NCBI GenBank assembly: GCA_043819075.1
Contig: JBDRFE010000002.1
Span: 66,253 to 130,252, forward strand
Source: an archaeon
GTDB lineage: Archaea > Iainarchaeota > Iainarchaeia > Iainarchaeales > 1-14-0-10-31-34
DNA: 64,000 nt
Reading direction: 5' to 3'
Position numbers and translations under genes: made by a program. Positions 1,183 through 54,511 of this stretch are shown here, piece after piece (within the stretch, counting starts at the first letter, position 1; every line of letters begins with the position of its first letter). The notes beneath the pieces are model-generated. The model had not been told where the DNA came from, did no database searches, and saw only the letters and a list, made by a program, of their open reading frames with translations.

Positions 1183-1743
1183 ATGTCTTTAGAGAATGTA
1201 ATAAAAGAGATTAATCTCGCAACAGAAAGCAAAGCCAATGGAGTAATCCAGGAAGGAAAGAATTCGGCAAAAGAACTTCTGCAGAAAACAAACGAGAAAA
1301 TACAGAAGTCAAGGGAAAAAACAGTTGTAAAAACAAGTGAAATAATTTCTTCCATGGAAAGAACAGAGATTGCTTCATTAAGGCTTCAGCTGAAAAAAGA
1401 ATTACTGAATGCAAAAAAAGAGATAATTGATTCAGTGTTCGGGCAGGCAAAAAAAGACCTGCAGAATCTTCCGGTAAAAGAAAAAGAAAGAATCCTGAAA
1501 AAGCTTTTGCATAACGGAAAAAAAGAAGTTGAAGCCAGCCATTTTTATTCAAACCAGAAAGACAAGGCACTGGTTTCAAAGCTTTCAGGCCTGAAGTTCA
1601 AGGAAGCAATTGACTGCACAGGCGGTTTTATCCTTGAAAACAATGACAATACAGTCAGTTCAGACCAGACATTTGACTTAATACTGGAAAAAGTTAAGGA
1701 AAAAAGCATTAGCGAGATTTCTTTAAGGGTGTTTAATGAATGA
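1183..1743 (+). CDS. atpE: A-type ATP synthase subunit E (peripheral stalk)
   Basis: 186-aa charged, coiled-coil-like protein in the expected position between K and C. Confidence 0.6.
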   Translation: MSLENVIKEINLATESKANGVIQEGKNSAKELLQKTNEKIQKSREKTVVKTSEIISSMERTEIASLRLQLKKELLNAKKEIIDSVFGQAKKDLQNLPVKEKERILKKLLHNGKKEVEASHFYSNQKDKALVSKLSGLKFKEAIDCTGGFILENNDNTVSSDQTFDLILEKVKEKSISEISLRVFNE

Positions 1744-2645
1744 CTGAAAAAGGTTTTGGGTATTCTTACACTAACACAAGAGTAAGGGTGATGAAATCCA
1801 AGTTAATTGACTCAAACGAGTACCCTAAGCTGTTAAAAATGTCTTTGGACCAGATTGCCCGTTACCTTGGAGAAACAGATTATAAAACAGAAATAGATGA
1901 GTTAGGGGCAACCTATGACAGAGTAAACTTGATTGAATTTGCTTTAAACAAAAACCTTTCAAGCTCTTTCAAGAAAGTCCTGAATTTTTCTTTAAAGGAT
2001 TCAAGGGAGTCAATAAAGCTTTTCCTTGAAAAATATGATTTGCATAATATTAAGACAATTTTAAGGGGAAAACAATCCAAGGAATCAAACAAAGAAATAA
2101 TCTATGACCTGATTCCTGCAGGCGAATTAACTTTTGCATTTCTTTCTGATGCAGTAAAAAAATCCAGTTCAGTTGAAGATGCAATAGAGTTTTTCAGAAA
2201 AACCCCTTATTATGAAACCATGAAAAAAAATTCCTCTAATTTAACTGAAATGGAAGATGAATTGGATATAAATTATTATTCAAAGCTTATTGCGGGAACA
2301 AAAGGAAAAATAAGGTCTTTAATGGTTGAAACAGCTAAATTCACTGATGCATTAAATGAAGCCAGAGCCAAAGAAACAAAAATCCAGTTAAAGACGATTC
2401 TTCCTCAAAAAAAAACTTACAGAAAAAAAATTGAAGTGAAAAGCATTGAGGACTCAAGGATTGAATTCAGGAAAAAAATTGCTTCAGACGGAATAAAACT
2501 GGTTAACAAGTTTCAGAGAAATTCCGCACCGGTAATAGGGTATTTTGTTGCAAAAGAAAACGAGATAACAAACTTAAGGATTATTTCAAGAGGCAAGCAC
2601 TCAGGCCTGCCAATGGAGTTAATTGAAAAACAATTGGTGTATTGA
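1740..2645 (+). CDS. atpC: A-type ATP synthase subunit C (V-type d)
   Basis: N-terminal YSYTNTRVRVMKSKLI matches the A/V-ATPase C/d-subunit signature (Y.Y.NaRvRaMks.LL); 4-nt overlap with atpE. Confidence 0.7.
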   Translation: MTEKGFGYSYTNTRVRVMKSKLIDSNEYPKLLKMSLDQIARYLGETDYKTEIDELGATYDRVNLIEFALNKNLSSSFKKVLNFSLKDSRESIKLFLEKYDLHNIKTILRGKQSKESNKEIIYDLIPAGELTFAFLSDAVKKSSSVEDAIEFFRKTPYYETMKKNSSNLTEMEDELDINYYSKLIAGTKGKIRSLMVETAKFTDALNEARAKETKIQLKTILPQKKTYRKKIEVKSIEDSRIEFRKKIASDGIKLVNKFQRNSAPVIGYFVAKENEITNLRIISRGKHSGLPMELIEKQLVY

Positions 2646-2646
2646 A

Positions 2647-2943
2647 ATGGAAATAGCGGTTGTTGGAACAGATGATTTTGTAACAGGCTTTAGCCTTGCA
2701 GGGGTAAAAAACACTTTTGCAGTGGAAAAAAATTTTGATGAAACAATTTCTTTTGTCCTGGAAAACAAAGAAATTGGAGTCATTGTAGTTGAACAAGAAG
2801 AAATGGATAAAATGAATGTCAAAACAAAAAGAATTTTAGAAAAGCTTATCACTCCGGTTGTAATAACTCTTTCTTCAAAGGGAAAGGAAACGGATTTAAG
2901 GCAATTAATTAAAAGGACGGTTGGTGTGGATTTATGGAAATAG
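2647..2943 (+). CDS. atpF: A-type ATP synthase subunit F
   Basis: [20 protein letters not shown] is the typical subunit-F N-terminus; the ORF-track start at 2623 is probably upstream of the true ATG at 2647. Confidence 0.75.
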
Positions 2944-4677
2944 CAAGAATATACAGAATCTCTGGCCCTGTTGTAATAGCAAAAGGCCTTAATGCAAAAA
3001 TGTTTGATTTAGTCCAAGTAGGCAAAGAAGAATTAATGGGAGAAGTAATCCAGATTGACGGAGACAAAACAACAATACAGGTTTACGAAGAAACATCTGG
3101 CTTAAAGCCCGGAGAACCAGTAAAAAACACCGGCGCACCATTATCAGTTGAATTAGGCCCAGGCATGCTGACCACAATTTATGACGGAATTCAAAGGCCA
3201 TTGCCTGCATTAGTTCAAAAGATGGGCAATTTCATTCAAAGAGGAATAAGTGTTCCAGGCTTAGATAGAAAAAAGAAATGGGATTTCAAGCCAACTGCAA
3301 AAAAAAAATGATTTAGTTGAAGGCGGGGATGTTCTTGGAACAGTTCAGGAAACAAAAAACATTGTTCACAAAATTTTAGTGCCTCCTTTTATTAAAGGAA
3401 AAATAAAAGAAATTAATTCAGGAAACTTTACTGTAACAGACACAATAGCTGTATTAGACAACGGAAAAAAACTTTTTTTAATGCACAAATGGCCTGTCAA
3501 AAAACCCCGTCCATCCAAAGAAAAATTAATGCCTGAAATTCCTTTGGTTACAGGCCAAAGAATTTTAGATTCCTTGTTTCCGATTGCAAAAGGCGGTGCA
3601 GGAAGCATTCCAGGGCCGTTTGGTTCAGGAAAAACTGTTATCCAGCAACAGCTGGCAAAATGGAGTGATGCAGAAATTGTTGTTTACATCGGCTGCGGTG
3701 AAAGAGGAAACGAAATGACTGAAGTTTTAACAGAGTTTCCTGAATTATTGGATGTCAAAACCGGCAGGCCGTTAATGGAGAGAACTGTGTTAATTGCAAA
3801 TACTTCTAACATGCCTGTTGCTGCAAGAGAAGCATCAGTTTACACTGGAATGACAATAGCAGAATATTTTCGAGACCAGGGATTTGATGTAAGCTTAATG
3901 GCTGATTCAACTTCTCGTTGGGCTGAAGCAATGAGAGAAATTTCTTCTAGGTTAGAGGAAATGCCTGGAGAAGAAGGTTATCCTGCTTACCTGGCTGCAA
4001 GATTATCAGAGTTTTATGAAAGAGCAGGCAGAGTAAATGTTTTAGGCCAAAGAAAACAAACTGGTTCTGTTACTGCAATCGGAGCAGTTTCTCCTCCCGG
4101 AGGAGACTTTTCTGAGCCGGTAACACAAAACACTTTAAAAATAACAAAAGTGTTCTGGGCATTGGATGCAAAACTAGCCCAGAGAAGGCATTTTCCTTCA
4201 ATTAACTGGCTTGACTCTTACAGCTTGTATGCAACTCCATTAGAAAACTGGTTTATTGAAAATGTTGCAGAAGACTGGGTTAAAGTCAGAAGGCAGATAA
4301 TGAAAGTTTTGCAGAAAGAAGCTTCTTTACAGGAAATAGTGCAGTTAATTGGTTCTGATGCTTTGCCTGAAAAAGAAAGGCTTACAATGGAAGTTGCAAG
4401 ATTAATTCGAGAAGGCTTTTTACAGCAGAATGCATTTCATGAAGTTGACTCTTATTGTAGTATGAAAAAACAATACGGCATCTTGAAAGGAATTATTTCT
4501 TTTTCAGAGCAGGCTGAAACAGCAGTTGATGTTGGAATTCCAGTTGAAAGTATTATTGGCATGGAATCAAAGTCAAAGCTGACAAAAATTTGTTTAGTTA
4601 AAGAAGAAAATTTTGAAAAAGAAATGAATAAAATAATGAATGAAATGAAGGAGGACTTCAAAAACATTGCAAAATAA
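2934..4677 (+). CDS. atpA: A-type ATP synthase catalytic subunit A, split by a +1 frameshift inside an A10 run (3299-3308); the N-terminal part is 2934-3311, the remainder is in frame +1 from about 3310
   Basis: The N-terminal ORF ([18 protein letters not shown]...) and the downstream ORF ([15 protein letters not shown]...[11 protein letters not shown]-loop...) are contiguous A-subunit sequence; deleting one A restores a single ~580-aa frame. Confidence 0.85.
3299..3308 (+). other. A10 homopolymer at the atpA frameshift site
   Basis: gcaaaaaaaaaatga: the stop at 3309-3311 arises only in the 10-A form; 9 As read through as ...[16 protein letters not shown]. Confidence 0.7.
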
Positions 4678-4709
4678 TTTTGCAATGCTGTCATTTAAGG
4701 GGTGTAGAA

Positions 4710-7700
4710 ATGAAGGAATACAAAACAATTGAAAGAATTGCCGGACCATTAATTTTTGTGAAAAAAACTGACCCAATTGGCTACGGAGAATTAGTTAAAA
4801 TAAAATTATCTGACGGAACAATAAAAAACGGCCAGGTGTTGGATACTTCAGATGACTTAGTTGTAGCACAGGTATTTGAAGGAACATCTTCTATTGACAG
4901 GCAGTCTTCAGTGAAATTCACCGGAGACACAATTAAATTAAAGGTTTCAAAAGACTTGCTTGGAAGAGTTTTATCCGGCTTAGGTGAGCCAATTGATTCT
5001 GGGCCAGAAATTATTCCTGACAAAGAATTAGATGTTGTCGGAGCAGCAATTAATCCTTTTGCAAGAAGCTCTCCAAAAGATTTTGTCCAAACAGGATTAT
5101 CAACAATTGATGCAATGAATACTTTGGTTAAAGGCCAAAAGCTTCCGATTTTTTCCGGTTCAGGTTTGCCTCACAATGACATTGCATTACAGATTGCAAG
5201 GCAGGCAAAAGTTGAAGGAAACTTTGCTGTTGTGTTTGCTGCAATGGGAATAACAAATGAAGAAGCCCAGCAGTTCCAAAGAGACTTTGAAAGAACCGGT
5301 GCACTAGAAAGAACAATAATGTTTTTGAATTTAGCTAACGACCCAGCAATTGAAAGGCTTATTACTCCGAGAATGGCTTTAACTGCAGCAGAATATTTGG
5401 CTTACACTCACGACATGCATGTTCTTGTAATTCTCACAGACATGACAAACTATTGTGTTGAAGGAAAAACTGAAATCTTTCTTAATGACGGGGAAATAAT
5501 CAACATTAAAGACTTTGTTGAATCCCAAACAAAAGGTTCTGATGTTGACATTAGGAGTAAAAATAAGTCTCTTGTTACATGGGATGGCAAAACCCATTCA
5601 ATTAAACAAATTGCAAGAGTGCAAAAACTTCCTTCTACTCAAGAGATGATTGAAGTTATAACCCGTTCAGGAAACAAGTTAACCGCTACCCCAAATCACA
5701 GAATATTATCTGATACGATTTACGGTTTAAGAATGACCAGACTTGATCAACTCAATAAAGGAAGCAAACTATGTTCTGCATCAAAAATCGACGTACAAGA
5801 AAGTGTTCCATCAGTTATAGAACTCATTGATAATAAAACAGCAGTCTTTATGGACAAAAATGTGTTGAACAAAGCCAAGCTCAAGTTAAAGAAAAAATAT
5901 GGTTCACTAATAAAAGCATGCAAAGAATTAGAAATTAATTATTCAAGAGTTACTGATTCAGAGTCTTTCCTGCAAGCAAGTGAACTTAAAAAAATCTCAA
6001 AAGATTTATCAATTGAATTAGTGAGTAGCATTAAAGCTTTATCTAATGTTGGGGGAAAAAGATTTGAAGTTTCTTTTGTTTATCCAAATAAAGAGCTGAT
6101 GTATTGTATGGGATTAGTTGCATCAGACGGTTCAGTAATTCAAAATAAAAAGAAACATATAAGAAGAGTTGATTTTTCAAACAAAAACATTCAGTTAATA
6201 AGCAATTATACTGAAAAAATGAAAAAACTGTTTCCAAACATCAACATAAAAGTATTCAAAAATCAAAACGATGTCAGTATTGCAAGAATTGAAAGCAAAC
6301 CTTTATTTGAAATGGCAAAATCTTTTGGTTTAGCAGAAAAAGATTTCAAACCAATTTTTAAACTTCCTGAAACTCTTATTGCTTCTTTCTTAAAAGGTTA
6401 CTTTGATGGGGACGGAAGCTGTAATATAAATTCAAAACTAATTAAATACACGGCAAAAGAAGAAATAGTTGTTAAAAGACTTAGACAACTTCTAAAAAGA
6501 TTGGGTATTTCTGCCACTACAATAAAACGAAAAAGTGAATCAAGTTACGGAAATTCTTTTGTATGTGATGTTGTTATTAGAGGAAGCACTTTTGTAACAA
6601 AGTTTATTGAAAGAATAGGTTCAGATCATCCTGCTAAAATGAGATTGCTTTCTATTTTAGGGAAAAAGAAAAAAAGAAGAGCTGAATTTGAACACGCTCC
6701 AAGAATATGCGGCAACCTATTAAGATTAATAAGACAGAAATACAAGATAAAACAAACAGAACTAACCAACAGTGGAAGTTTTTCAGAGATTGAAAGAGGT
6801 TTAAAAACTGTAAGTAAAGCCGAAGTTAGAAAGTATATTGCAAAACTTGATAACGTAGTTCCATTAAATGAAGAACTATTAGTTGAATTAAAAAAGCTCA
6901 CTTCAGACAACTTTATCTTAGATCAAATAATTTCAATCAAAAAATTGCCTGCAAACAACCTCTTTGTTTTTGATGTAACGGTTCCGGAAACAGGCAAGTT
7001 TTTAGTTGACACTGGCCTGATAATTTCTAATTGTGAGGCTTTAAGGGAAATTGGTGCTGCAAGAGAAGAAGTTCCTGGAAGAAGAGGTTATCCTGGTTAT
7101 ATGTACACTGACTTGGCTTCAATTTACGAAAGAGCCGGCTTGATTAAAGGAAAAAAGGGTTCAGTAACACAGATTCCAATCCTGACAATGCCAGGCGACG
7201 ATATAACTCACCCAATACCTGATTTAACTGGTTATATTACTGAAGGTCAAATCGTTTTAGGAAGAGAACTGCATATGAAAGGAGTTTATCCTCCGATTGA
7301 TGTTCTTCCATGCCTTTCACGTTTAATGAATGCAGGAATAGGCAAAAAAAACACTAGAGAAGACCATAAAGCTGTTTCAAACCAGTTGTATGCAGCTTAT
7401 GCTGAAGGCCGTTCTTTAAGGGGATTAGTTGCAATTGTAGGAGAAGAAGCCTTAAGCGAAAGAGACAGAAAGTTTTTGAAGTTTGCAGAAGAATTTGAGC
7501 AAAAATTTATTTCACAAGACAAATACGAGAACAGGACAATTTTTGAGTCACTGAATTTAGGCTGGGATTTATTGTCTGCTTTGCCTGCAACAGAATTAAC
7601 AAGAATTGATGATGAGTTAATCGCAAAATACTTGGATAAAAACAAGAGACCAGCGGAAAAAACGCCAGAGGCAAAACTTGACACTTCAAAAGAAATTTCT

Positions 7701-7802
7701 GCTCCAAAAGAAACAAAACTGATTGCAGGAAAAAACAATTCAGGAAACAAGACCAGCAAAAATAATTCAAAAAACGGAAAAAACAAAAAGAAAAAAAAGT
7801 GA
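4710..7802 (+). CDS. atpB: A-type ATP synthase subunit B containing a 526-aa intein; the host protein has an unusual ~60-aa Lys/Asn-rich C-terminal tail
   Basis: Extein sequence is contiguous across the insertion (...[11 protein letters not shown] | [29 protein letters not shown]...); the ATG at 4710 is preceded by an AGGGGTG RBS (the ORF track starts at an upstream TTG at 4680). Confidence 0.9.
5454..7031 (+). mobile_element. Intein with LAGLIDADG homing-endonuclease domain inserted in atpB
   Basis: Begins with Cys ([14 protein letters not shown]), ends ...GLIISN followed by the +1 Cys of the C-extein; LAGLIDADG-like blocks [12 protein letters not shown] and [12 protein letters not shown]; in frame with the host. 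Confidence 0.85.
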
Positions 7803-7810
7803 GCTAAGTT

Positions 7811-8464
7811 ATGCCTGAGATTAAACCTACACGATCTGAATTAATCAAGTTAAACAAGGCAATAAAGTTAGCTACTTCAGGCCATGGTTTGCTGAAAAGA
7901 AAGCGTGACGGCTTAATACAGGAATTCTTTAAAGTCTTGGATGAAGCAAAAAAATCCAAGTCAGAAATGTCAGGCAATTATTCAAAAGCAACCCAAAGCA
8001 TTAACTTAGCCAGAGCAGTTGACGGAACAGTTGCAGTTAAATCCGCTTCACTTGCATTAAAGCATACTGCAAAAATTGAGGTAAAAACAAGGAATGTTAT
8101 GGGGGTAGTTGTTCCAGCAGTAAAATCAGATTATGAGGTAAAGTCTTTTGAAGAAAGAGGTTATGGCTTAATCGGAACATCTTCTTATATTGATGAGGCG
8201 GCAGAACGCTATGAAATTTTATTGAAAAACATTATTGTTGCAGCAGAAATAGAAAACACTTTAAGGAAACTTTTAACTGAAATCGACAAGACAAAAAGAA
8301 GGGTTAATGCATTAGAATTCAAGGTAATTCCCGGAATGAAAAAAAATGCCTCTTTTATCCGCTTGCGTTTAGAGGAAATGGAAAGAGACGACTTATTCAG
8401 GCTAAAAAAAATTAAAGCCAAGTCAAAAAGAAAAGCCGAAGCAAAACAATTAGAAGCAAGCTGA
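7811..8464 (+). CDS. atpD: A-type ATP synthase subunit D (central stalk)
   Basis: MPEIKPTRSELIKLNKAIKLATSGHGLLKRKRDGL is the typical subunit-D N-terminus; last gene of the operon. Confidence 0.85.
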   Translation: MPEIKPTRSELIKLNKAIKLATSGHGLLKRKRDGLIQEFFKVLDEAKKSKSEMSGNYSKATQSINLARAVDGTVAVKSASLALKHTAKIEVKTRNVMGVVVPAVKSDYEVKSFEERGYGLIGTSSYIDEAAERYEILLKNIIVAAEIENTLRKLLTEIDKTKRRVNALEFKVIPGMKKNASFIRLRLEEMERDDLFRLKKIKAKSKRKAEAKQLEAS

Positions 8465-8479
8465 TTTAATCAGTTAAAT

Positions 8480-9313
8480 TTAAATTAATCCTTTCCCTGT
8501 GTTGATTGCCAAGATTCTGGTTTCTTTATTTAACTTAAGCTTAGGCAAAGCTGCAAAAACAGTGGCGGCTGAAGGTTCGCAGTTAATTAACCCTTCAACA
8601 CTTTTCATTGCAGACAAAATTTCTTCGTCTTTTACTTCAATATATTTGTTTCCTTTTTTTAAAGCATCATTAATTTCCTTGGAGTACGGTCTCCAACAAG
8701 TTATCAGTTTGTCTGCAACGCTTTTACTGGAATTCACTCCGACACACACAATCTTAACTTTCATTTTAAGTTTTTTCAGAGCTGAATGGATTCCTAGAAA
8801 CAGTTCTCCGCTTCCCAGAGGGCAAATAATGCAGTCAAGTTTTTTCAGATACTCTTTTTTTAACTCAAAAATAATTTGTTCATTTGCTTTGTGCCATCTG
8901 TTTGTGGCATCCAAAATCTTTTCTTCATTATTTTCTCTTGCAAGTAGCGTGATTTCTTCTGGTTTAAACATTTTTTCAGCCAAATCTGCTTCAATTAATT
9001 TACCGCAGTATTTTTTGAGTTTTTCTTTAATGGAATTTCTGCATTTCTTGTCAACGATTGAAACCACTTTTATGCCTGTTCCTTCCGAGAATTTAGCCAA
9101 AGAATACCCTGAATTTCCGGCAGTAATTAATGCAAGTTTATCTATGTTATTTTCTTTGGCATTTTTGATTATCAGTTCGCTTCTTCTGTCCTTGAATGTC
9201 CCGAAAGGATTTTTGCTTTCATCTTTAATCCACAGATTAGGCAAATTAAATTTTTTGTTTAAGTAAGAAATTTTCAGCAAAGGAGTGTGCCCAACTTCAA
9301 TCATTGTTTTCAC
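8480..9313 (-). CDS. PLP-dependent enzyme, fold type II (threonine synthase/cysteine synthase-like PALP family)
   Basis: HTPLL...KDESKNPFGTFKDRRS matches the TPL...K.E..NPTGSFKDR lysine/PLP motif; ITAGNSGYS glycine loop. Confidence 0.55.
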   Translation of the reverse strand: MKTMIEVGHTPLLKISYLNKKFNLPNLWIKDESKNPFGTFKDRRSELIIKNAKENNIDKLALITAGNSGYSLAKFSEGTGIKVVSIVDKKCRNSIKEKLKKYCGKLIEADLAEKMFKPEEITLLARENNEEKILDATNRWHKANEQIIFELKKEYLKKLDCIICPLGSGELFLGIHSALKKLKMKVKIVCVGVNSSKSVADKLITCWRPYSKEINDALKKGNKYIEVKDEEILSAMKSVEGLINCEPSAATVFAALPKLKLNKETRILAINTGKGLI

Positions 9314-9745
9314 TTATTCCCAAACTTTTTTTCCAAAAGCAGTTTCTTCTTTTCTTTTTTCATCAGGTTTTTTTGGGTTGTAAGCTTTATCCATTACATA
9401 TACAACCAAGGCAGGTTTTTCCCCTAACACTTTGTATCCATGCCATATTCCTGCAGGCACTTTAACTAAAACAGGCTTTTCTTCGCCAAGCAAAAATTCT
9501 TTTATTTCTGTTTTTCCTTTTTTTTCTTCTGCAGTGCAGAATTTTATTTTTCCTTTCACGCAACACACATAGTCTATCTGTTTTTCATGCAGATGCCATG
9601 CTCTTACTACCCCTGAATTGCTTTCAGATACAAGAATCTGCCCGAATTTTCCTTCAAACAATTCATCGTCTTTCCTTAAAAGCTCAAACAAAAAACCTCT
9701 TGCATCCCTGAAAACTTTTAGTTCTTTTGCTTTTTCTTTTCCCAT
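9314..9745 (-). CDS. Cupin-fold sugar nucleotide epimerase/isomerase (RmlC/FdtA-like)
   Basis: 143-aa cupin (RGFLFEL...HLHEKQ...VPAGIWHGY) adjacent to GT2, C-methyltransferase and RmlD-like genes. Confidence 0.5.
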   Translation of the reverse strand: MGKEKAKELKVFRDARGFLFELLRKDDELFEGKFGQILVSESNSGVVRAWHLHEKQIDYVCCVKGKIKFCTAEEKKGKTEIKEFLLGEEKPVLVKVPAGIWHGYKVLGEKPALVVYVMDKAYNPKKPDEKRKEETAFGKKVWE

Positions 9746-9812
9746 AAAAACGCCTTTTATTATTATTTTGCCTTCAAAAACAATTAAATCGCTTTTGTTG
9801 GGTAATTCTTTG

Positions 9813-10769
9813 ATGACCCGCTCGCTATTGTACTCTTTTTTGCTTGGATTAATTATTGCACCGTTTTTTGCCCTGTCAATTGCAGGAATCCTGTTTCATG
9901 CTTTTTTTCCTGATACAAAATTATTTATTCTATCAGTTAATGTTCTTGTCTTTGCCTCGCTTATTTATTTTTTGATTGCAATAGCAATTTTTCTCAGGTT
10001 TTTTGTTTTAATTTCAGTTTTTCCTCTTCCTCCGAGAACAGTCAAATATGACAGCCTTTCAAATAAAAAAATTACTGTCTGCCTGACAGCATACAACGAT
10101 GAAGGCATTATCGGAGACGCAGTAAAAGACTTTAAATCACATAAATTAGTTGACGAAGTAATTGTTGTGGACAACAACTGTTCGGACAACACTGCAGGAG
10201 AAGCAAAAAAAGCTGGTGCAATAATAGTTAAAGAGCCAATCCAAGGCTTTGGTGCTGCTTCAATTCGTGCACTAAAAACCGCTTTACAAAAAGCAAAACC
10301 AAAAAACAATCTGGTTTTGTTTGTTGAAGGCGACCAGACTTTTGTTTCAAAAGACATTGATAAATTTGTTTCGTACATTGATAATGCTGACATGGTTATC
10401 GGAACAAGAACAACAAAAGAATTAGCGACAAAAGACTCTCAGGTTACAAGGCCAATCCAGTACTCTAATTTGTTTCTTGCAAAATTAATTCAGTTAAAAT
10501 ACTGGGGCACTGTTCGTTTAACTGATGTCGGCTGTTCAATGAGATTAATCCGCTGTAATGCATTAGAAAAAACAATTCCGTTGTATTCTGTTACAGGCAG
10601 CGCGTTTTCCCCGCACATGATTGACATGGTTTTAAAAAAAGGCTTCAGGGTAATTGAAATTCCTGTTTACTTCAAAAAAAGAGGCGGTACTTCAAAAGGA
10701 ATTGGCTCTGATTTCATTAAAGGCTTTCCAACCGGCCTGGAAATGATTTGGAATATTTTAACCCAGTGA
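9813..10769 (+). CDS. Family-2 glycosyltransferase (dolichyl-phosphate sugar transferase-like)
   Basis: N-terminal TM helices then VCLTAYNDEG...VVDNNCSDNT...FVEGDQ (DXD-type) motifs; the ORF-track start at 9618 overlaps the divergent cupin gene, so the true ATG is probably at 9813. Confidence 0.75.
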   Translation: MTRSLLYSFLLGLIIAPFFALSIAGILFHAFFPDTKLFILSVNVLVFASLIYFLIAIAIFLRFFVLISVFPLPPRTVKYDSLSNKKITVCLTAYNDEGIIGDAVKDFKSHKLVDEVIVVDNNCSDNTAGEAKKAGAIIVKEPIQGFGAASIRALKTALQKAKPKNNLVLFVEGDQTFVSKDIDKFVSYIDNADMVIGTRTTKELATKDSQVTRPIQYSNLFLAKLIQLKYWGTVRLTDVGCSMRLIRCNALEKTIPLYSVTGSAFSPHMIDMVLKKGFRVIEIPVYFKKRGGTSKGIGSDFIKGFPTGLEMIWNILTQ

Positions 10770-10774
10770 TTTAA

Positions 10775-12031
10775 GTGTTTAAAAAAATTAGTTCTTGCAG
10801 GATATGCAATTCAAAAAACCTTTCAAAATACCTTGACTTAGGTGAAACTCCTTTAGCTAATTCTTTAATCAAGCCTGAAAACAAAAACCAAAAAGAATTG
10901 TTTTTTCCGCTGGAAACGCTTTATTGTTCAGATTGTTCGCTTTCACAGTTAAGCATTGTGGTTGACCCGAAAACAATGTTTTCTGATTACGTTTACCGTT
11001 CAAGTGTTTCAGAAACCTTCAGAAAGCATTGCAGTGAACTTGCAGTTGAACTAAAAAAAAGATTTGAAAAAAATGATTTAAAGGCATTGGATATCGCAAG
11101 CAATGACGGCTGCCTTTTAATGGAATTCAAAAAACACGGATTCAGCGTAATCGGAGTAGAACCTGCAAAAAACATTGCCGTAATAGCAGAAAAAAACAAA
11201 ATTCACACAATAACTGAATTTTGGGGTGAAAAAACAGCAGAAAAAGTCTTAAAAGAATTTAATGGCAAAGCAGATGTAATTACTGCAACAAATGTTTTAG
11301 CCCATGTGGACAAAGTATCAGATTTTGTTTCTGCAATGCATTCAGTTTTAGATGAAAACGGCTTGATTGTAATTGAAGTTCCTAGCGCTGAAAAACTAAT
11401 TGAAGAAAACGAGTTTGACACAATCTATCACGAGCATTTGTCTTATTTTTTGTTAAAGCCTTTAATTGAATTATTTGAAAGGAATTCGTTTAAGGCAGTT
11501 GATGTGGAACAGATTGGAATTCACGGCGGAACAATAAGGTTTTTTGCAGCAAAAAATTCTTCTAAAAGAAAGCCAAATACTAAAGCATTAACTGGTTTTC
11601 TTGAAAAAGAAAACGCCTCGGGATTATATGAATTAAAAACTTATTTGAGGCTTGCAGAAAACACGAAAAAAATCAAGTCAGATTTAACTTCTTTGCTGAA
11701 AAAACTTAAATCAGAAAACAAGTCAGTTGCAGCTTACGGTGCTTCAGCCAAAGGAAGCACTTTGCTTAATTACTGTAACATTGGAACAGATTTCATTGAT
11801 TTTATTGTTGATGACACTCCGGAAAAACAAAACAAGCTTACCCCAGGAAACCATATTTCAGTTTTTCCAAGAACCCGTTTAGAAAAAGAAAAGCCGGATT
11901 TCTTGTTATTGCTTTCATGGAATTTTGCACGAGAGTTCATTAAAAAAACTCCAGAGCACAGGCTGAGAGGCGGAAAATACATTCTTCCAATTCCTGCAGT
12001 TAAAATCATTTCTTCAGAAGATGAGCTTTAA
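10775..12031 (+). CDS. NDP-hexose C-methyltransferase-like SAM methyltransferase (Zn-ribbon N-terminal domain plus class I MTase)
   Basis: N-terminal CRIC...CSDCS zinc-binding domain followed by DIASNDGCLL (SAM motif I) and a C-terminal C-methyltransferase-like domain; architecture of TylCIII-type sugar C-methyltransferases. Confidence 0.6.
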   Translation: MFKKISSCRICNSKNLSKYLDLGETPLANSLIKPENKNQKELFFPLETLYCSDCSLSQLSIVVDPKTMFSDYVYRSSVSETFRKHCSELAVELKKRFEKNDLKALDIASNDGCLLMEFKKHGFSVIGVEPAKNIAVIAEKNKIHTITEFWGEKTAEKVLKEFNGKADVITATNVLAHVDKVSDFVSAMHSVLDENGLIVIEVPSAEKLIEENEFDTIYHEHLSYFLLKPLIELFERNSFKAVDVEQIGIHGGTIRFFAAKNSSKRKPNTKALTGFLEKENASGLYELKTYLRLAENTKKIKSDLTSLLKKLKSENKSVAAYGASAKGSTLLNYCNIGTDFIDFIVDDTPEKQNKLTPGNHISVFPRTRLEKEKPDFLLLLSWNFAREFIKKTPEHRLRGGKYILPIPAVKIISSEDEL

Positions 12032-12891
12032 TGAAAAAAAAAGTTTTAGTAATCGGTGCAAGCGGTTTTCTTGGAACAGCTTTAATGCAAGAGCTTTCAA
12101 AAAAATTCAATGTTATTGGCACTTTTTTTGGGGAAAAAAAGCAGGGCTTGATTGAATTAGACTTAAATAATTCAGTTCAGCTGGATTCAGTCCTGAACTC
12201 TGTTTTCCCTGAATTAATTGTTTTGGCCGCAGCAGAAACAGATGTTGATGCATATGAATTAAAACCTGAAATTTCAAGAAACCAGATTATTTCAGCAAAA
12301 AAAATAGTTGAATACTGTAAAGAAAAAAATTGTTTTCTTGTTTTCATTTCAACTGACGCAGTATTTGACGGAAAAAAAGGAAACTATAATGAAACAGACG
12401 CCCCTAATCCAATCTGTGAATACGGCAGAAACAAATTATCCCTAGAAAAAATAATTTCATCACTGAAAAATTATTTGATTTTAAGAACTTCTGTTCTTTA
12501 TGGTTTGCCTCTTTCTCCTGACAAGTTTATTGGAGGAACAATTCTAAAGCTTTTAAAAAAAGAAAAAGTTTTTGTCGCAGAAGACTGGAAGAGAACTCCA
12601 ACTCTTACAACAGATCTTGCCAAAGCTTTAATTAATTTAACAGAAAAAAACCAAAAAGGATTATTTCATGCTGCAGGAAATTCAAGCCTTTCCTCTTATG
12701 AAACTGCTCTGGCAATAGCAGAGAAATTTAATGTTCCTTCATCTTTAATAGAAAAAATAAAAGGAGATGAATTAAAGCTTCCTGCAAAAAGGCCATTGGA
12801 TTCTTCTCTGAATATTTCCAAGCTTTTGTCTCTTGGAATCAGGATGAGTTCTTTTGAAGAAGGGCTTGAATTCATTCACTCTAATCTTTAG
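12031..12891 (+). CDS. dTDP-4-dehydrorhamnose reductase-like NAD(P)-dependent sugar reductase (RmlD family)
   Basis: [14 protein letters not shown] Rossmann motif, YGRNK catalytic Tyr-x3-Lys, ~286 aa. Confidence 0.65.
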
Positions 12892-15488
12892 TCTTCTATT
12901 CCGTTTTCTGTTACCCTGTAAACTGCTTCTCCGTCTGGAAGTGATGGGCTGTCAACTAATTTTGCAACTCTTTTCTCTGCTTTTGCTTTTCTTAGATACA
13001 ATCTAGTTTTGCTGTTGTGTACTATGAAACCATTTGCAATGTAATTTTCTGTTTCTGGGACACTGATGTCATATAGTGGCAGGTTGTTTTTCTGCTTTTT
13101 AATGCTTGTAACTTTCCCGAAAGAAATTTCTCTGTTCTGAATTGCTTCCATTAATGCTATTTTTTCTTTGTGTTGTTCAGGAATTTCTTTGCTTTTTATT
13201 GTGTTCAAAATCATTTTTAGTTCATGCATACCAATGTATTTGTAGTTTCTAGATTGAATTACCTTGCTTGGATATTTAACTAATTCTTTTAAGAAGCCCC
13301 AAACAACTTTTCTTTCAATTGGAACAGTAACTTTTGCCCTGTTTTCGCTGAATTCTTTTATCCATTTATCAAGTTTTTTTCTTTTATCTGGAGCACTGAC
13401 GCTAATTTCCCTTCCATATTTCACCACATCTTCACTGAATATTTCTAAAGATTGAAATTCTTTTGCTCCGTATTTCAGAATCCTAGATTTTATTCCAAAC
13501 CTTAGCAACAGCATTTGAATTATTTGCAGTATTTCCTTGTCTTTTTGTCCGATACTAATCCTTCTAATGCTTTTGTCAATATGCCCTTCTGCATCAACAA
13601 ATCCTTTAATGAATGCTTTGACAACAGGTTTTGGCGACTGTGTGATTAATGGGATATAATTTTTTTTAATGTAAGAAAACAATTCCCTTATTTCTTTACT
13701 GTTCACACTTAACTGCCAGCAATTTTTGTCTTTAACTTTAGAAAATTTTCCCTCCATATTAAAGACGCTTTTGAACAGTTTTTCATAAGTCTCCAGAACT
13801 TCTTTTCTTGCATCTTTAAACCTTAAACTTCTTTGCTCAAGATTTCCATCACCTAAAAAATAACCAGTCGTTTGTGCAAGTTCTTCAGAGAATGTTTCCG
13901 GAACAGTTAATGGTCTGTGCCTGTAATTTAAAGCAGGTTGTGTTTCTTCTATTATTTCTTCTGCAATTCCTTCATCAAACCCTAAACCAAAAATGCTGTT
14001 CATGTTTTCCATTGAAATTGGTCTGCTTTCATTCAAAGATCTTCTTAAAGACCTTTTATCAAAAGGCATTTCTTCACAAAACTGTTCTCTGGTAAAACCC
14101 CTGTTTTTAATAGTGTTTTTTATTAGTTCAGCGCCTTTCTTGTTGACAATCAAGAATTCTTTTAATTGCATTTTCGGAATTTCTTGTTCACTACTTTCAA
14201 TTTCTATTTTTCCTGCCTGCAACAAGTAGTCATTTTTCTTGATATCTTTTGCTTTTACTTCCCTGACTTCAAATCCATTTAACTTAAAGAATTTGTGGTT
14301 TGGAGAAGCGTTAATTTGATGCCCTGTATCAATTAAATAGCTTTCTTTTATGTCATCTCTTTTTGATTTGCATGAAACAACTGAAACTTTTCCTTTTAAT
14401 TCCTTAAAGTCGGTTGAACAAACAGTTTTTTCTGCGAACTCTTTTATTTTGGTGATCTGCCCATTGCCTGTTTGAATTAATGTATTTGGGTCAAGACAGG
14501 CGTGCCCAACCACATGGCCTCCAATTGGCGCAGTGGGGTCGCCGAATAAAATGTCTGGCCTGGACATTACCTGGTTTGTAACCAGCAAAGCAATGTTGTT
14601 CATTTCAGCTAATTTCATTAAAGTATGCATGTGCTTGTTTAGTTTTTGCTGCCTTCCTGCAAGAGTTCCTCGGCCAATGAATTCTGCCCTGAATTGAGAT
14701 GTTAAGGAATCAACTATTACCAGCTTGATGTTATTGCTTTTAATCATGTCTTCTGCTTTGTCAGCCAAAACCATTTGGTGGTCTGAGTTAAAGGCTCTTG
14801 CAACAAAAATGTTTTTCAAAACTTTTTTTTCATCTAAGCCAAAATGTTTTGCAATGCTTATCACTCTTTCTGGCCTGAAAGAATTCTCTGAATCAATGTA
14901 TAAAACATTTCCATTCAAGCCTCCTTTTTCTTTTGGCAGCTGGGTTGTAACGCATAACTGAAAACACCATTGGGTTTTTCCTGACGCATACTGGCCGTAC
15001 ACTTCTGTAATGCTTTGGGTTTCAATTCCTCCGCCGATTAAGTCATCTAATTCTTTTGAGCCAGTGGTAATTCTTCCGATAATAAGCCTTCTTTCCTGTA
15101 TTTTGTCTGCTGTCTCGTAACCCATTTCAAGTGATTCTCTTGCAGCATTAATTGCTTTTGTTGCAGTTATTTCGCCTAAACCAGCGGCTTCCATTAATTC
15201 TGCTGGAGAAGCAACAGCAATGTTTTCCATTGTCTTGTATCCTGCGCCGATTAATTTTTCAGCTGAAGTTGTTCCAACCCCGGGCAAATCTGAAATGCTT
15301 TTGTATTTTTTTCCTCTGGATTTTTTTTCTTCTGGTTCAGTTGTTTCTTCTTCTGAAGAATCAGTTATTTCTTGTGTTTTGTTTGTTGTTTCTTCAATTG
15401 CTTCTGTTTCTGTTGTGGTTTTGTTTTTCGCCATGATTTCATCTCCTGCATCAAGTTTTTTCAGGCTGTTGTTCTCGGCTGAACTCAC
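12888..15488 (-). CDS. radA: DNA repair and recombination protein RadA, containing a 495-aa intein; acidic/Thr-rich N-terminal extension
   Basis: HhH domain ([18 protein letters not shown]), Walker A (GQYASGKTQ), ...[10 protein letters not shown] | intein | [23 protein letters not shown]...; an alternative start at ATG 15434 (MAKNK...) is possible. Confidence 0.9.
13014..14498 (-). mobile_element. Intein with LAGLIDADG homing endonuclease inserted in radA
   Basis: Starts [13 protein letters not shown], ends ...NGFIVHN followed by the Ser +1 of the C-extein; LAGLIDADG-like blocks [11 protein letters not shown] and [11 protein letters not shown]. Confidence 0.85.
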
Positions 15489-49521: not shown

Positions 49522-49541
49522 CCTCTAATCATTTTTTGGTT

Positions 49542-51086
49542 ATGGAAGAAAAACAGGAAATCGGCACAGTTATTTCTACAATGGATTCTCCTAGCCCATC
49601 CAAGCTAAGTTTTGTAGTTGACTCAGACAAGCCTGTTCACCGAGGCCAGTTTGTTGAACTGGATTACTCTGAAGGAACATTAATTGCTTTAGTGAACAAC
49701 GTAGTGAAAACAAACCGTTATTTTGAGAGAGCTGATTCAGTAAAAGAATTTGAATCAAATGGTTTAAGCCTCAAAGAACAGTTTCCTACCACTGAATGGG
49801 AATTTTTGATTGCAGAAACAAGACCTTTAGGTGTTTTCACTGAAAGCCTAACCAAGCGCTCTACTTTTCCTCCTTCTCCTGGCATTAAAGTCAGGGTTGC
49901 TTCGGATAAAAACCTGAAAAAATTTTTTGGTTTTGATGAAAAAAACGGATTAAGTCTTGGAAAAGTCGAATACCATGACACTGAAGTAAAAATTAATTTA
50001 ACTAAATTAATGCAAAAGCATGTTGCTGTTCTTGCAATGAGTGGTGCAGGGAAATCATATTTTGTCGGCGTCTTATTGGAGGAACTGCTTGAAAGAAAAA
50101 AAGAGCAGGGAAGGATTGCAACAATAGTGTTAGATGTTCACGGCGAATACGGTTCTTTTTGCGAGCCAACAACAGACAAAAAATTCAAAGACTATTCTTC
50201 TAAAACAAAATTAGTTAATGCAAGAAACATCCGCATCGGCGTATCAAAGCTTTCAGCAGGATTGTTTTCTTCAATTCTTCCGGGTTTAAGCGCTCCCCAG
50301 AAAAGGGATTTAGGAAGAATTATTTTTAAATTACAGCAGAAAATGAAGGAAGGTCTTGGACCGTATTCTTTGAATGACATTAAAAGAGAATTATCCAAAG
50401 ACGAGGAAGTAAAAGATGTAACAGAAAAAGCCTTGAATTCGTGGTTTGCTGAATTAGAGGAACTGAATTTGTTTTCTGAAACAGATTCTCCTTCTTTAGA
50501 GGATTTGGTTGAGCCAGGCAAAATGACTGTAGTTGATTTTTCTGATATAATTCATTTAAAGAAAAAACAGATTATAGTGAATTATTTTGCAAACAAATTG
50601 TTTGCCTTGAGAAGAAAAAAACAGATTCCGCCTTTTTTCCTTGTTCTCGAGGAAGCTCACCAGTTTATTCCAGAGCGAATGTCAAAAGAAGGCGCGATTG
50701 CAAGAAGCATTTTAGAGACAATTGCAAGAGAAGGACGAAAATTTGGTGCGGCTTTATGTTTGATTTCCCAGAGGCCAATTCAGTTAAGCACTACAGTTTT
50801 ATCTCAATGCAATACTCACATCATTTTGCGCATTACAAATCCTTATGACTTAAAGCATATCGGAGAAAGCTCTGAAGGACTAGATTCCCGTTCACTTGAA
50901 ATGATTACTGTTTTAAGAGTCGGAGAAGCATTAATCTTGGGGGAAGCAACAGGCTTTCCATTGTTTTTTAAGGTAAGGAAAAGGCTTTCAGCTGAATCAA
51001 GGCACGAGAAATCAATTGAACAAAGTGCAATAGACTTTGAGGATTCAGCAGATGAAAGAGAAAACGAGGCAAGACAGTTTCTTTAG
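49542..51086 (+). CDS. herA: HerA (FtsK/HerA-superfamily helicase)
   Basis: HVAVLAMSGAGKSYFVGV Walker A, VLEEAHQFIP Walker B; the ORF track starts at TTG 49536, and ATG 49542 lies ~25 nt after the TATA box. Confidence 0.8.
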   Translation: MEEKQEIGTVISTMDSPSPSKLSFVVDSDKPVHRGQFVELDYSEGTLIALVNNVVKTNRYFERADSVKEFESNGLSLKEQFPTTEWEFLIAETRPLGVFTESLTKRSTFPPSPGIKVRVASDKNLKKFFGFDEKNGLSLGKVEYHDTEVKINLTKLMQKHVAVLAMSGAGKSYFVGVLLEELLERKKEQGRIATIVLDVHGEYGSFCEPTTDKKFKDYSSKTKLVNARNIRIGVSKLSAGLFSSILPGLSAPQKRDLGRIIFKLQQKMKEGLGPYSLNDIKRELSKDEEVKDVTEKALNSWFAELEELNLFSETDSPSLEDLVEPGKMTVVDFSDIIHLKKKQIIVNYFANKLFALRRKKQIPPFFLVLEEAHQFIPERMSKEGAIARSILETIAREGRKFGAALCLISQRPIQLSTTVLSQCNTHIILRITNPYDLKHIGESSEGLDSRSLEMITVLRVGEALILGEATGFPLFFKVRKRLSAESRHEKSIEQSAIDFEDSADERENEARQFL

Positions 51087-54325: not shown

Positions 54326-54511
54326 ATGGGAAAATCTGTTCCAAAAGGAGTTAAAGTCAAGGCAGAAATCCTGCTGAAAGAAAGCAATGAATTTTCAACT
54401 GATTTTGATAAAAACAAGGAAGTAATTGATTCAATGAAATTAGGGCTTTCAAAAAAAATAAGAAACCTTATTGCCGGATTTATTGTAAGAAAAAAATCAG
54501 TGAAAGACTAG
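54326..54511 (+). CDS. rps17e: 30S ribosomal protein S17e
   Basis: MGK...VKVKAEILLKE...FSTDFDKNKEVIDSM...SKKIRNLIAGFI matches S17e ([27 protein letters not shown]). Confidence 0.75.
   Translation: MGKSVPKGVKVKAEILLKESNEFSTDFDKNKEVIDSMKLGLSKKIRNLIAGFIVRKKSVKD

Follow-up and report, generated by a model that had tools for sequence, protein, structure and literature searches.

Predicted class-1 inteins with LAGLIDADG endonucleases in the atpB and radA genes of a DPANN archaeon

Two essential genes in a 64,000-nucleotide stretch of archaeal DNA (contig JBDRFE010000002.1; the whole stretch is referred to here as the window) are each interrupted by a long in-frame segment: atpB, which encodes the non-catalytic B subunit of an A/V-type ATP synthase, and radA, which encodes the RadA recombinase. 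This raises the question of whether the segments are native parts of their host proteins or inteins and, in the latter case, whether they are still able to splice and to home. It appears most probable (we put the probability at roughly 0.92) that both are class-1 inteins, each with a nested double-motif LAGLIDADG endonuclease, placed in frame at conserved positions of essential ATPase-fold proteins, with splicing and cleavage predicted from their sequences. The atpB site lies just past the strand equivalent to Walker B, between ...TDMTNY and CEALRE..., and the radA site lies between ...GGHVVGHA and SKTRLYLRK. Both inteins belong to families already present in public data, which makes the find real but ordinary. 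The family of the radA intein, RadA-e, is very common among DPANN archaea; that of the atpB intein is rarer, and its members have already been sequenced and in places annotated.

The first-pass annotation, made from the letters of the window alone, had recognised both inteins; the positions and lengths that it assigned to them were recovered exactly on recalculation, with the junction strings that it quoted present in the translations (Table 1). The two LAGLIDADG blocks and the splice residues that it ascribed to each intein can likewise be read from the sequence, and the corresponding Pfam scores lie above the cut-offs. The atpB intein has Cys1, a TxxH block B, a terminal Asn, and Cys at +1, and its C-terminal junction reads LIISN/CEALR (a slash marks a splice junction throughout). 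The penultimate His, which is common in class-1 inteins but not obligatory, is missing; this had been seen at the outset, and the present analysis adds that it is a family-wide trait (see below). The Intein_splicing family (PF14890) scores 44.8 bits in atpB against a cut-off of 35.8, and LAGLIDADG_3 (PF14528) scores 64.8 bits against a cut-off of 22.5. The first endonuclease motif, GLVASDGS, lies within 6102-6134 (Asp225) and the second, GYFDGDGS, within 6390-6419 (Asp320); G220, G226, D318, G319, D320, and G321 do not vary among 23 relatives, and D225 is kept in at least 90% of them. In the radA intein, Cys1, an SxxH block B, the terminal Asn, Ser+1, and the penultimate His are all present, the C-terminal junction reads FIVHN/SKTRL, and the Pfam scores are 86.6 bits for Intein_splicing (cut-off 35.8) and 73.8 bits, in two stretches, for LAGLIDADG_3.

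The fold of the atpB intein was approached through an AlphaFold2 model built on a 23-sequence alignment (predicted local distance difference test, pLDDT, 91.8; predicted template-modelling score, pTM, 0.92). The top Foldseek match of this model in the PDB is the TliVMA intein (7qss; expectation value E = 1.4e-21, template-modelling score, TM, 0.78 over the target), followed by PI-PkoII (2cw7), PI-PfuI (1dq3), PhoVMA (7qst), and PI-SceI, and its endonuclease core matches the I-DmoI fold. Sequence-only matches of the atpB intein to the PDB are weak (PI-PkoII at E = 4e-6). Since PF14890 scores above its cut-off and the model matches solved inteins, the atpB segment can be assigned a Hint fold.

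That the segments are insertions follows from the contiguity of solved orthologues and close intein-free relatives at both junctions. AtpB of known structure from M. mazei (PDB 2c61, 469 amino acids, aa) matches the precursor in two pieces at E = 1.7e-213, precursor residues 1-249 and 775-978 corresponding to residues 11-262 and 262-465 of 2c61, which are contiguous at the atpB junction. Similarly, P. furiosus RadA (1pzn, E = 2.3e-111) aligns through chain residues 18-309 and 306-349, contiguous at the radA junction. When the spliced AtpB sequence is used as the query, it retrieves intein-free orthologues (P0154-P0157 of the protein collection, 503-527 aa, 91-93% identity, one of them named Candidatus Micrarchaeota) that run uninterrupted across the junction, where an alternative reading is ILTDITNYAEALREIG. 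Among the syntenic loci of the nearest relatives, L001, L002, L003, and L038 have no gap across the atpB junction, and L001, L002, and L003 have none at the radA-e site. The intein-free atpB site of L001-L003 reads ...GATATGACAAATTAT/TGTGAAGCATTAAGAGAAATTGG..., and the intein-free radA of L001/L002 is uninterrupted at the e site, one junction reading there being GGNVVAHASKTRIYLRK. An alignment of the exteins had been proposed beforehand as the test on which the intein interpretation could founder; with the orthologues contiguous at both junctions, it is the case for native domains that fails. Two longer AtpB entries, P0153 and P0159 (704 and 588 aa), were considered as further intein carriers and rejected, as they contain internal tandem duplications on short contigs and are assembly artefacts.

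The warning of the first-pass annotation that the host open reading frames (ORFs) mislead by their length is borne out. The atpB ORF counted from a TTG at 4680 has 1040 aa (4680..7802, + strand), although the true start is likely the ATG at 4710, which gives 1030 aa; after removal of the intein, AtpB has 514 aa, or 504 aa from that ATG. The 866 aa of radA are counted from a GTG, with an alternative ATG start possible at 15434, and RadA without its intein has 371 aa. Once the interruptions are taken into account, the Pfam domains are those of the host proteins: ATP-synt_ab_N, ATP-synt_ab in two pieces, and ATP-synt_VA_C in AtpB, and Rad51 in two pieces plus HHH_5 in RadA.

Table 1. Coordinates of the two intein-bearing genes, their parts, and the ATP synthase genes in the window
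Feature	Position	Strand	Remarks
atpB precursor	4710..7802	+	non-catalytic B subunit; translation, Pfam, PDB 2c61
atpB N-extein	4710..5453	+	aligns to M. mazei AtpB residues 11-262; 91-93% identical to intein-free P0154-P0157
atpB intein	5454..7031	+	526 aa, class-1 type: Cys1, block B TPNH, Ser-Asn end, then Cys+1
LAGLIDADG homing-endonuclease domain of atpB intein	6069..6653	+	approx. residues 206-400; Pfam LAGLIDADG_3
atpB intein blocks F and G	6960..7031	+	Gly-Lys replaces F-block His-Asn; Ser replaces penultimate His
atpB C-extein	7032..7802	+	aligns to 2c61 residues 262-465; Lys-rich low-complexity tail, also in P0154-P0157
radA recombinase precursor	12888..15488	-	866 aa; translation, Pfam, PDB 1pzn
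radA N-extein	14499..15488	-	aligns to P. furiosus RadA 18-309
radA intein	13014..14498	-	495 aa: Cys1, SPNH, His-Asn end, then Ser+1
radA intein block B SPNH	14295-14306	-	
radA LAGLIDADG motif GYFLGDGN	13842-13865	-	
radA LAGLIDADG motif GFVDAEGH	13581-13604	-	
radA C-extein	12888..13013	-	aligns to 1pzn residues 306-349
atpE	1183-1743		A/V-type ATP synthase operon at window start
atpC	1740-2645		A/V-type ATP synthase operon
atpF	2623-2943		A/V-type ATP synthase operon
atpA	2934-4677		catalytic A subunit, frame broken at 3299-3311
atpD	7811-8464		directly after atpB in operon

The expected course of events can be drawn from established intein chemistry. Each precursor would be translated whole, after which Cys1 would undergo an N-S acyl shift and trans(thio)esterification would move the N-extein onto the +1 nucleophile (Cys+1 in AtpB, Ser+1 in RadA). 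The terminal Asn would then cyclise and release the intein, and an acyl shift would leave a normal peptide bond, with AtpB of approx. 504 aa and RadA of approx. 353-371 aa as products. The freed endonuclease would cut alleles that lack the intein where their site is unbroken, and recombinational repair templated by the occupied copy would spread the element (homing). For both inteins, the target sites are ready-made, because Cys is native at +1 in nearly all close intein-free AtpB orthologues and Ser is native at +1 in RadA of two intein-free relatives.

The radA intein has numerous relatives. With the intein alone as query, 226 significant matches were obtained, and the statements that follow rest on the best 120 of these, all of which are RadA proteins or fragments. 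Where a source name is given for the 120, it is either a DPANN one (Micrarchaeota, Nanoarchaeota, Pacearchaeota, Aenigmarchaeota, or Diapherotrites) or simply 'archaeon'. Identity to the window radA intein is 38-48% for most of them and 85-90% for three, two of which bear Micrarchaeota names. All 120 inteins occupy the same alignment columns, between ...GGH..(G/A)H(A/N) and S.TR.YLRK; the N-terminal junction is GHA/C or a close variant, the C-terminal junction is HN/S in 116, and block B is SxxH in every one. The acidic residues of the LAGLIDADG motifs are likewise kept (Asp in 119 and Glu in 118 of the 120). Five RadA/RecA insertion points have been listed by Topilina et al. 2015, NAR (PMC4513877), among them RadA 'e' of Nanoarchaeota archaeon SCGC AAA011-L22 (WP_018203495), with an intein of 497 aa at residues 278-774. 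The window radA intein very probably sits at this published site, as judged from sequence: residue 331 minus the N-terminal extension of approx. 53 aa gives approx. 278, the sizes are 497 and 495 aa, and there are Nanoarchaeota-named homologues, so that the equivalence is one of position arithmetic, length, and homologue names.

The relatives of the atpB intein are fewer. Used alone as a query, it matched 28 proteins in the protein collection, of which P0002 (Nitrososphaerales, HKW04444.1; full-length cluster mate P0152) and P0003 are AtpB proteins with an intein at the same site. The remaining matches are 25-35% identical inteins in unrelated hosts (among them NuoB, a nitroreductase-family protein, AOR, PFOR, and Cbf5/TruB), as judged from Pfam domains and source names; P0001 and P0004-P0021 are among them, and the few named proteins of this set are from Aenigmarchaeota. 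The occurrence of one intein clade in unrelated hosts suggests movement between host genes. In the 23-sequence alignment, the C-terminal consensus of the clade is VYDxTVxxTHNF...xSN/C, and before the terminal Asn 19 of 22 relatives have Ser and three have Lys, none His, with Cys at +1 throughout.

A genome scan gave a broader view of the site itself. One genome per species (185,579 species) was searched with a C-junction pattern, N-x-EALR plus further residues, which cannot match intein-free atpB and which counts same-site inteins irrespective of intein sequence. There were 28 matches, every one an intein at the AtpB site (TDMTNY/C...SN/CEALRE), and this number is a lower bound because the pattern is strict. 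All 28 are homologous to the window atpB intein (BLASTP identity 27-52%, full length wherever the locus is complete). They comprise 16 archaeal members (from Methanopyri, Methanobacteriota, Thermoplasmata, Nitrososphaerales, Methanophagales, Methanosarcinales, Desulfurococcales, Thermoproteota, Micrarchaeia, and Iainarchaeum) and 12 bacterial ones (from Acetothermia, Rubrobacteraceae, Armatimonadetes, Firmicutes, Sysuimicrobiota, ANGP1, and others); two, L016 and L028, are mini-inteins of 180 aa. All 28, and likewise P0002 and P0003, end Ser-Asn/Cys. The missing penultimate His is thus a trait of the family and not a mark of decay. In the searchable literature, no paper describing an AtpB/VatB-site intein family was found. 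InBase reportedly listed a 'Mka VatB' intein of Methanopyrus kandleri, and a Methanopyri metagenome-assembled genome (MAG; L006) carries an AtpB intein at the same site. The earlier remark that inteins are rarer in subunit B than in subunit A is plausible, with 28 same-site B-subunit inteins in 185,579 species genomes. The archaeal hosts given by Novikova 2016 include V-ATPase subunit A, with 12 inteins; in the text and tables consulted there is no mention of subunit B.

How the two inteins came to be where they are is best seen from the syntenic loci of the nearest relatives (approx. 85% nucleotide identity in atpB), in which four sites can be compared: the P-loop of atpA, the atpB site, and the c1 and e sites of radA. 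In the window, the atpB and radA-e sites are occupied and the atpA P-loop and radA c1 sites are empty. The loci L033/L037 (Ga0066639) and L036 (ENA) have inteins in the atpA P-loop, in atpB (83% aa identity), and at radA-e (85% aa identity), with c1 empty. In L038 (GCA_043820085.1), radA-e is occupied (90% aa identity) and both atpB (with Ala at +1) and c1 are empty, atpA lying outside the fetched DNA. In L003/L004 (JGI 3300025150), c1 is occupied and the atpA P-loop, atpB, and radA-e sites are empty, whereas all four sites are empty in L001 (GCA_964608675.1) and in L002 (GCA_024277355.1). A contig fragment, L034 (JGI 3300025150), has the atpB intein (90% over 133 aa), with atpA and radA outside the fetched DNA. 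Intein-bearing (L034) and intein-free (L004) atpB alleles are therefore found in one metagenome, 3300025150. In addition, the atpB exteins of L033 are 86-89% identical at the nucleotide level to those of intein-free L002/L003 and 84-86% identical to those of the window; intein-bearing alleles are thus not grouped by extein similarity, and several gains or losses are needed.

Some of these loci deserve a description of their own. The atpA of the nearest relative (L033 3-3236, contig Ga0066639_10000387) encodes at least 1078 aa and carries a third intein at the vma-b P-loop site, with junctions GPFGSGK/CVSGETT...MLLHN/TVTQQQLAKW; the window atpA is empty there. The radA of L003/L004 (12766-15354, - strand) has a c1 intein (GKFASGK/CVSKDT...VFLHN/TQWCFQL) and an empty e site, the reverse of the window. 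In L038, no gene has been called for the intein-free atpB at 7039-9117, and its frame dissolves upstream of approx. residue 70 into unrelated sequence, for which reason this contig end is probably chimeric.

The first-pass annotation had read the presence of two inteins in 64 kb as a sign of ongoing intein traffic. For the lineage this stands, on the strength of the comparison rather than of that count, with zero to three inteins per locus over the four sites; the two copies themselves, however, are not recent arrivals. Both are shared with the nearest relative, and between the window and L033/L036 their dS (0.61 for the atpB intein, 0.49 for the radA intein) is not much lower than that of the exteins (0.72-1.04), so that they can postdate the species split only slightly, if at all. 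No co-conversion footprint was found near the atpB junction: identity to intein-free relatives stays level along the gene (approx. 85%), and three private synonymous differences no farther than 15 bp from the junction are too few to interpret. One apparent case of recent transfer elsewhere, P0023/P0024, in which an identical intein start lies on diverged exteins, was set aside: neither protein is complete or traceable to a contig record (source 'SRC', one labelled with a read-run accession), and both may be chimeras. A scan of viral contigs for a vector gave only distant (22-30%) LAGLIDADG inteins for the atpB intein, many of them in GVMAG (giant-virus MAG) contigs, and no match for the radA intein. 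Within the window itself, no third intein was found when both inteins were compared by phmmer with six-frame ORFs of at least 80 aa and the ten longest other ORFs were examined with Pfam.

Selection on the sequences bears on whether the inteins work. Between two intein-bearing alleles, the atpB exteins have a ratio of nonsynonymous to synonymous substitution rates (dN/dS) of 0.06-0.07; this and the ratios below are pairwise Nei-Gojobori estimates that are approximate, dS being near saturation. Selected exteins in intein-bearing alleles imply that the host proteins are made and hence that splicing works. For the atpB intein as a whole, dN/dS is 0.15, with 0.04-0.09 in the Hint parts, 0.32 in the linker, and 0.16 in the endonuclease domain (compared with L033), whereas the radA intein gives 0.09-0.16 as a whole (three relatives) and 0.08-0.14 in its endonuclease domain. 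Such constraint speaks for endonuclease domains that are functional rather than drifting, and the varying presence of the inteins among relatives is further, indirect evidence that they may cleave intein-free alleles.

Several observations weigh against this account, the approximate nature of the ratios among them. Asn cyclisation usually has the help of a penultimate and an F-block His; the atpB intein has neither, and its C-terminal step may therefore be slow or rely on other residues. The protein collection contains RadA and AtpD of this contig (identical to NCBI MFH1663296.1 and MFH1663290.1, respectively, 'MAG: archaeon') but not AtpB. Moreover, a surplus A in a homopolymer of 10 A (GCAAAAAAAAAATGA) cuts atpA into ORFs of 125 and 432 aa; were this frameshift real, the ATP synthase operon might be decaying. 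Beyond the break, the +1 frame resumes normal AtpA sequence, and in relatives, which read GTAAAAAAAGGAGAT at the position of the A-run, atpA is intact and encodes 580 aa. An error in assembling the homopolymer is the probable cause; a genuine frameshift might or might not be rescued by transcriptional or ribosomal slippage.

These points can be assembled into a different story, in which the archaeon is on its way to losing its ATP synthase, like some other DPANN archaea, and an atpB intein devoid of both His residues decays within a decaying operon whose atpA has already been split by a single-nucleotide insertion. We regard this as very unlikely. The Ser-Asn/Cys ending recurs without exception at the same site, as described above, and the change from the family's THNF to TGKF is seen not in the window alone but as a variant, ETGKF...ISN, common to L027, L033, and L034, i.e., in four independent sequences; dN/dS of the block F/G segment is 0.04, and the variant is tolerated and conserved. 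The operon genes other than atpA are intact, the atpB exteins are constrained, and a lone extra homopolymer base in a metagenome assembly is most simply an error when the atpA of relatives is whole. Nor does assembly offer a ready way of explaining the inserts themselves as chimeras in which a foreign intein was joined at a conserved stretch. Conserved extein beside inteins can indeed mislead assemblers, and P0023/P0024 may be such products; however, the reading frame is kept exactly through both inserts and their junctions are precise, two independent contigs (146,652 and 106,019 bp) encode the same RadA and also the same AtpD, and L033/L037, as well as L036, show the same atpB and radA-e arrangement at 83-85% aa identity, which leaves this explanation close to negligible. 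The chance that the segments are native AtpB and RadA domains of the lineage rather than mobile insertions is practically nil: 2c61, 1pzn, and AtpB relatives of 91-93% identity are without them and contiguous at the exact residues, and the segments bear intein and LAGLIDADG signatures together with an intein fold.

A more serious alternative accepts splicing and holds that the endonucleases are dead, the inteins being passengers inherited vertically and retained only because an essential gene would not survive their imprecise loss. Compatible with vertical descent, both inteins are shared with the nearest relative and are about as diverged from it as the exteins are, and no close copy turned up in the viral contigs scanned. 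Against it stand the dN/dS of the endonuclease domains (0.08-0.16), which indicates purifying selection, and the catalytic acidic residues of both motifs, which the window copies share with almost every family member. The pattern of extein similarity in L033 demands repeated gain or loss, and intein-bearing and intein-free atpB alleles occur together in metagenome 3300025150. It is reasonable to regard passengers with dead endonucleases as possible but unlikely, and to prefer class-1 inteins whose endonucleases are predicted to be active.

As to the host, the nearest relatives of its AtpB and RadA include Candidatus Micrarchaeota names, and the next AtpB matches (approx. 81%) are named Diapherotrites; on these grounds, it is called a DPANN archaeon. 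The G+C content of the window is approx. 34%. The C-terminus of AtpB (7640-7802) forms a Lys/Asn/Ser-rich tail of approx. 50 aa and the N-terminus of RadA (15300-15488) a Thr/Glu-rich extension of approx. 60 aa; as the closest relatives have both, these are features of the lineage and not artefacts. Between atpD and radA lie approx. 4.4 kb of extra ORFs (8480-12891), of which 10775-12031, the sole one given a Pfam scan, is a C-methyltransferase. Since this block is missing from L001-L003 and L036/L037 have a similar one (methyltransferase, epimerase, and glycosyltransferase), it represents a variable gene block. The window contains other DNA-repair ATPase genes, for Rad50 (54508-56892, - strand) and a HerA-like helicase (49536-51086, + strand), both intein-free.

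What is gained from this locus does not overturn the current understanding of inteins. Mildly new are the Ser-Asn/Cys ending, which recurs in all AtpB-site members seen, archaeal and bacterial alike, the extra loss of the F-block His in the sub-lineage of the window's atpB intein, and the four-site matrix of intein presence and absence among close relatives. It is tempting to go further and to see in the AtpB-site inteins a cross-domain family whose clade moves between host genes and in which the sub-lineage that lacks both His residues has arrived at a distinct catalytic solution for the C-terminal step, held under strong purifying selection; at present, this seems doubtful and quite unlikely. 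In practical terms, atpB and radA gene lengths and automated annotation will mislead in related DPANN genomes unless the inteins are removed. Syntenic relatives with zero to three inteins at four sites in approx. 20 kb form a compact natural data set for the homing cycle of gain, fixation, and loss in uncultured archaea. Protein engineers could also take an interest in the AtpB-site family as a ready series of naturally occurring inteins that lack the penultimate His, the two 180-aa mini-inteins among them.

Among known systems, the RadA-e intein of SCGC AAA011-L22 resembles the window radA intein in host protein, size, shifted position, and DPANN source. The RadA-c1 inteins (Pho and Tko RadA; PDB 4e2t, 2lqm) share with it the host protein and class-1 chemistry; they sit, however, in the P-loop, whereas the window radA intein follows the GGH..GHA loop and the c1 site of the window is empty, a c1 intein being present in the close relative L003. 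The VMA inteins (PI-SceI at vma-a; TliVMA and PhoVMA at vma-b, 7qss and 7qst) are found in the same complex as the atpB intein, in the same ATPase fold, and with the same Hint and LAGLIDADG architecture, but they occupy the catalytic A subunit and have only approx. 15-18% sequence identity to the atpB intein, which lies in the B subunit. The A-subunit sites are vma-b in the P-loop, at K240/T241, and vma-a at G260/C261 (Swithers 2009). The AtpB site corresponds to DSTSR/WAEA of subunit A, i.e., to a third position in the shared fold; the idea that it might be the paralogue of a known A-subunit site was rejected, as vma-a and vma-b lie elsewhere, and the window atpA is uninterrupted at the tested VMA insertion region. 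There are reportedly inteins that splice without a penultimate His, and the window atpB intein likewise has Ser in that position; it differs from them in that the substitution spans the whole AtpB-site family seen and is joined, in the window sub-lineage, by loss of the F-block His. Parallels at the AtpB site itself are, for example, the inteins of HKW04444.1 (a Nitrososphaerales 'V-type ATP synthase subunit B') and L006, which have the identical site, LAGLIDADG architecture, penultimate Ser, and +1 Cys, and from which, as from other AtpB-site inteins, the sub-lineage formed by the window with L027, L033, and L034 is set apart by the change of its F-block from THNF to TGKF.

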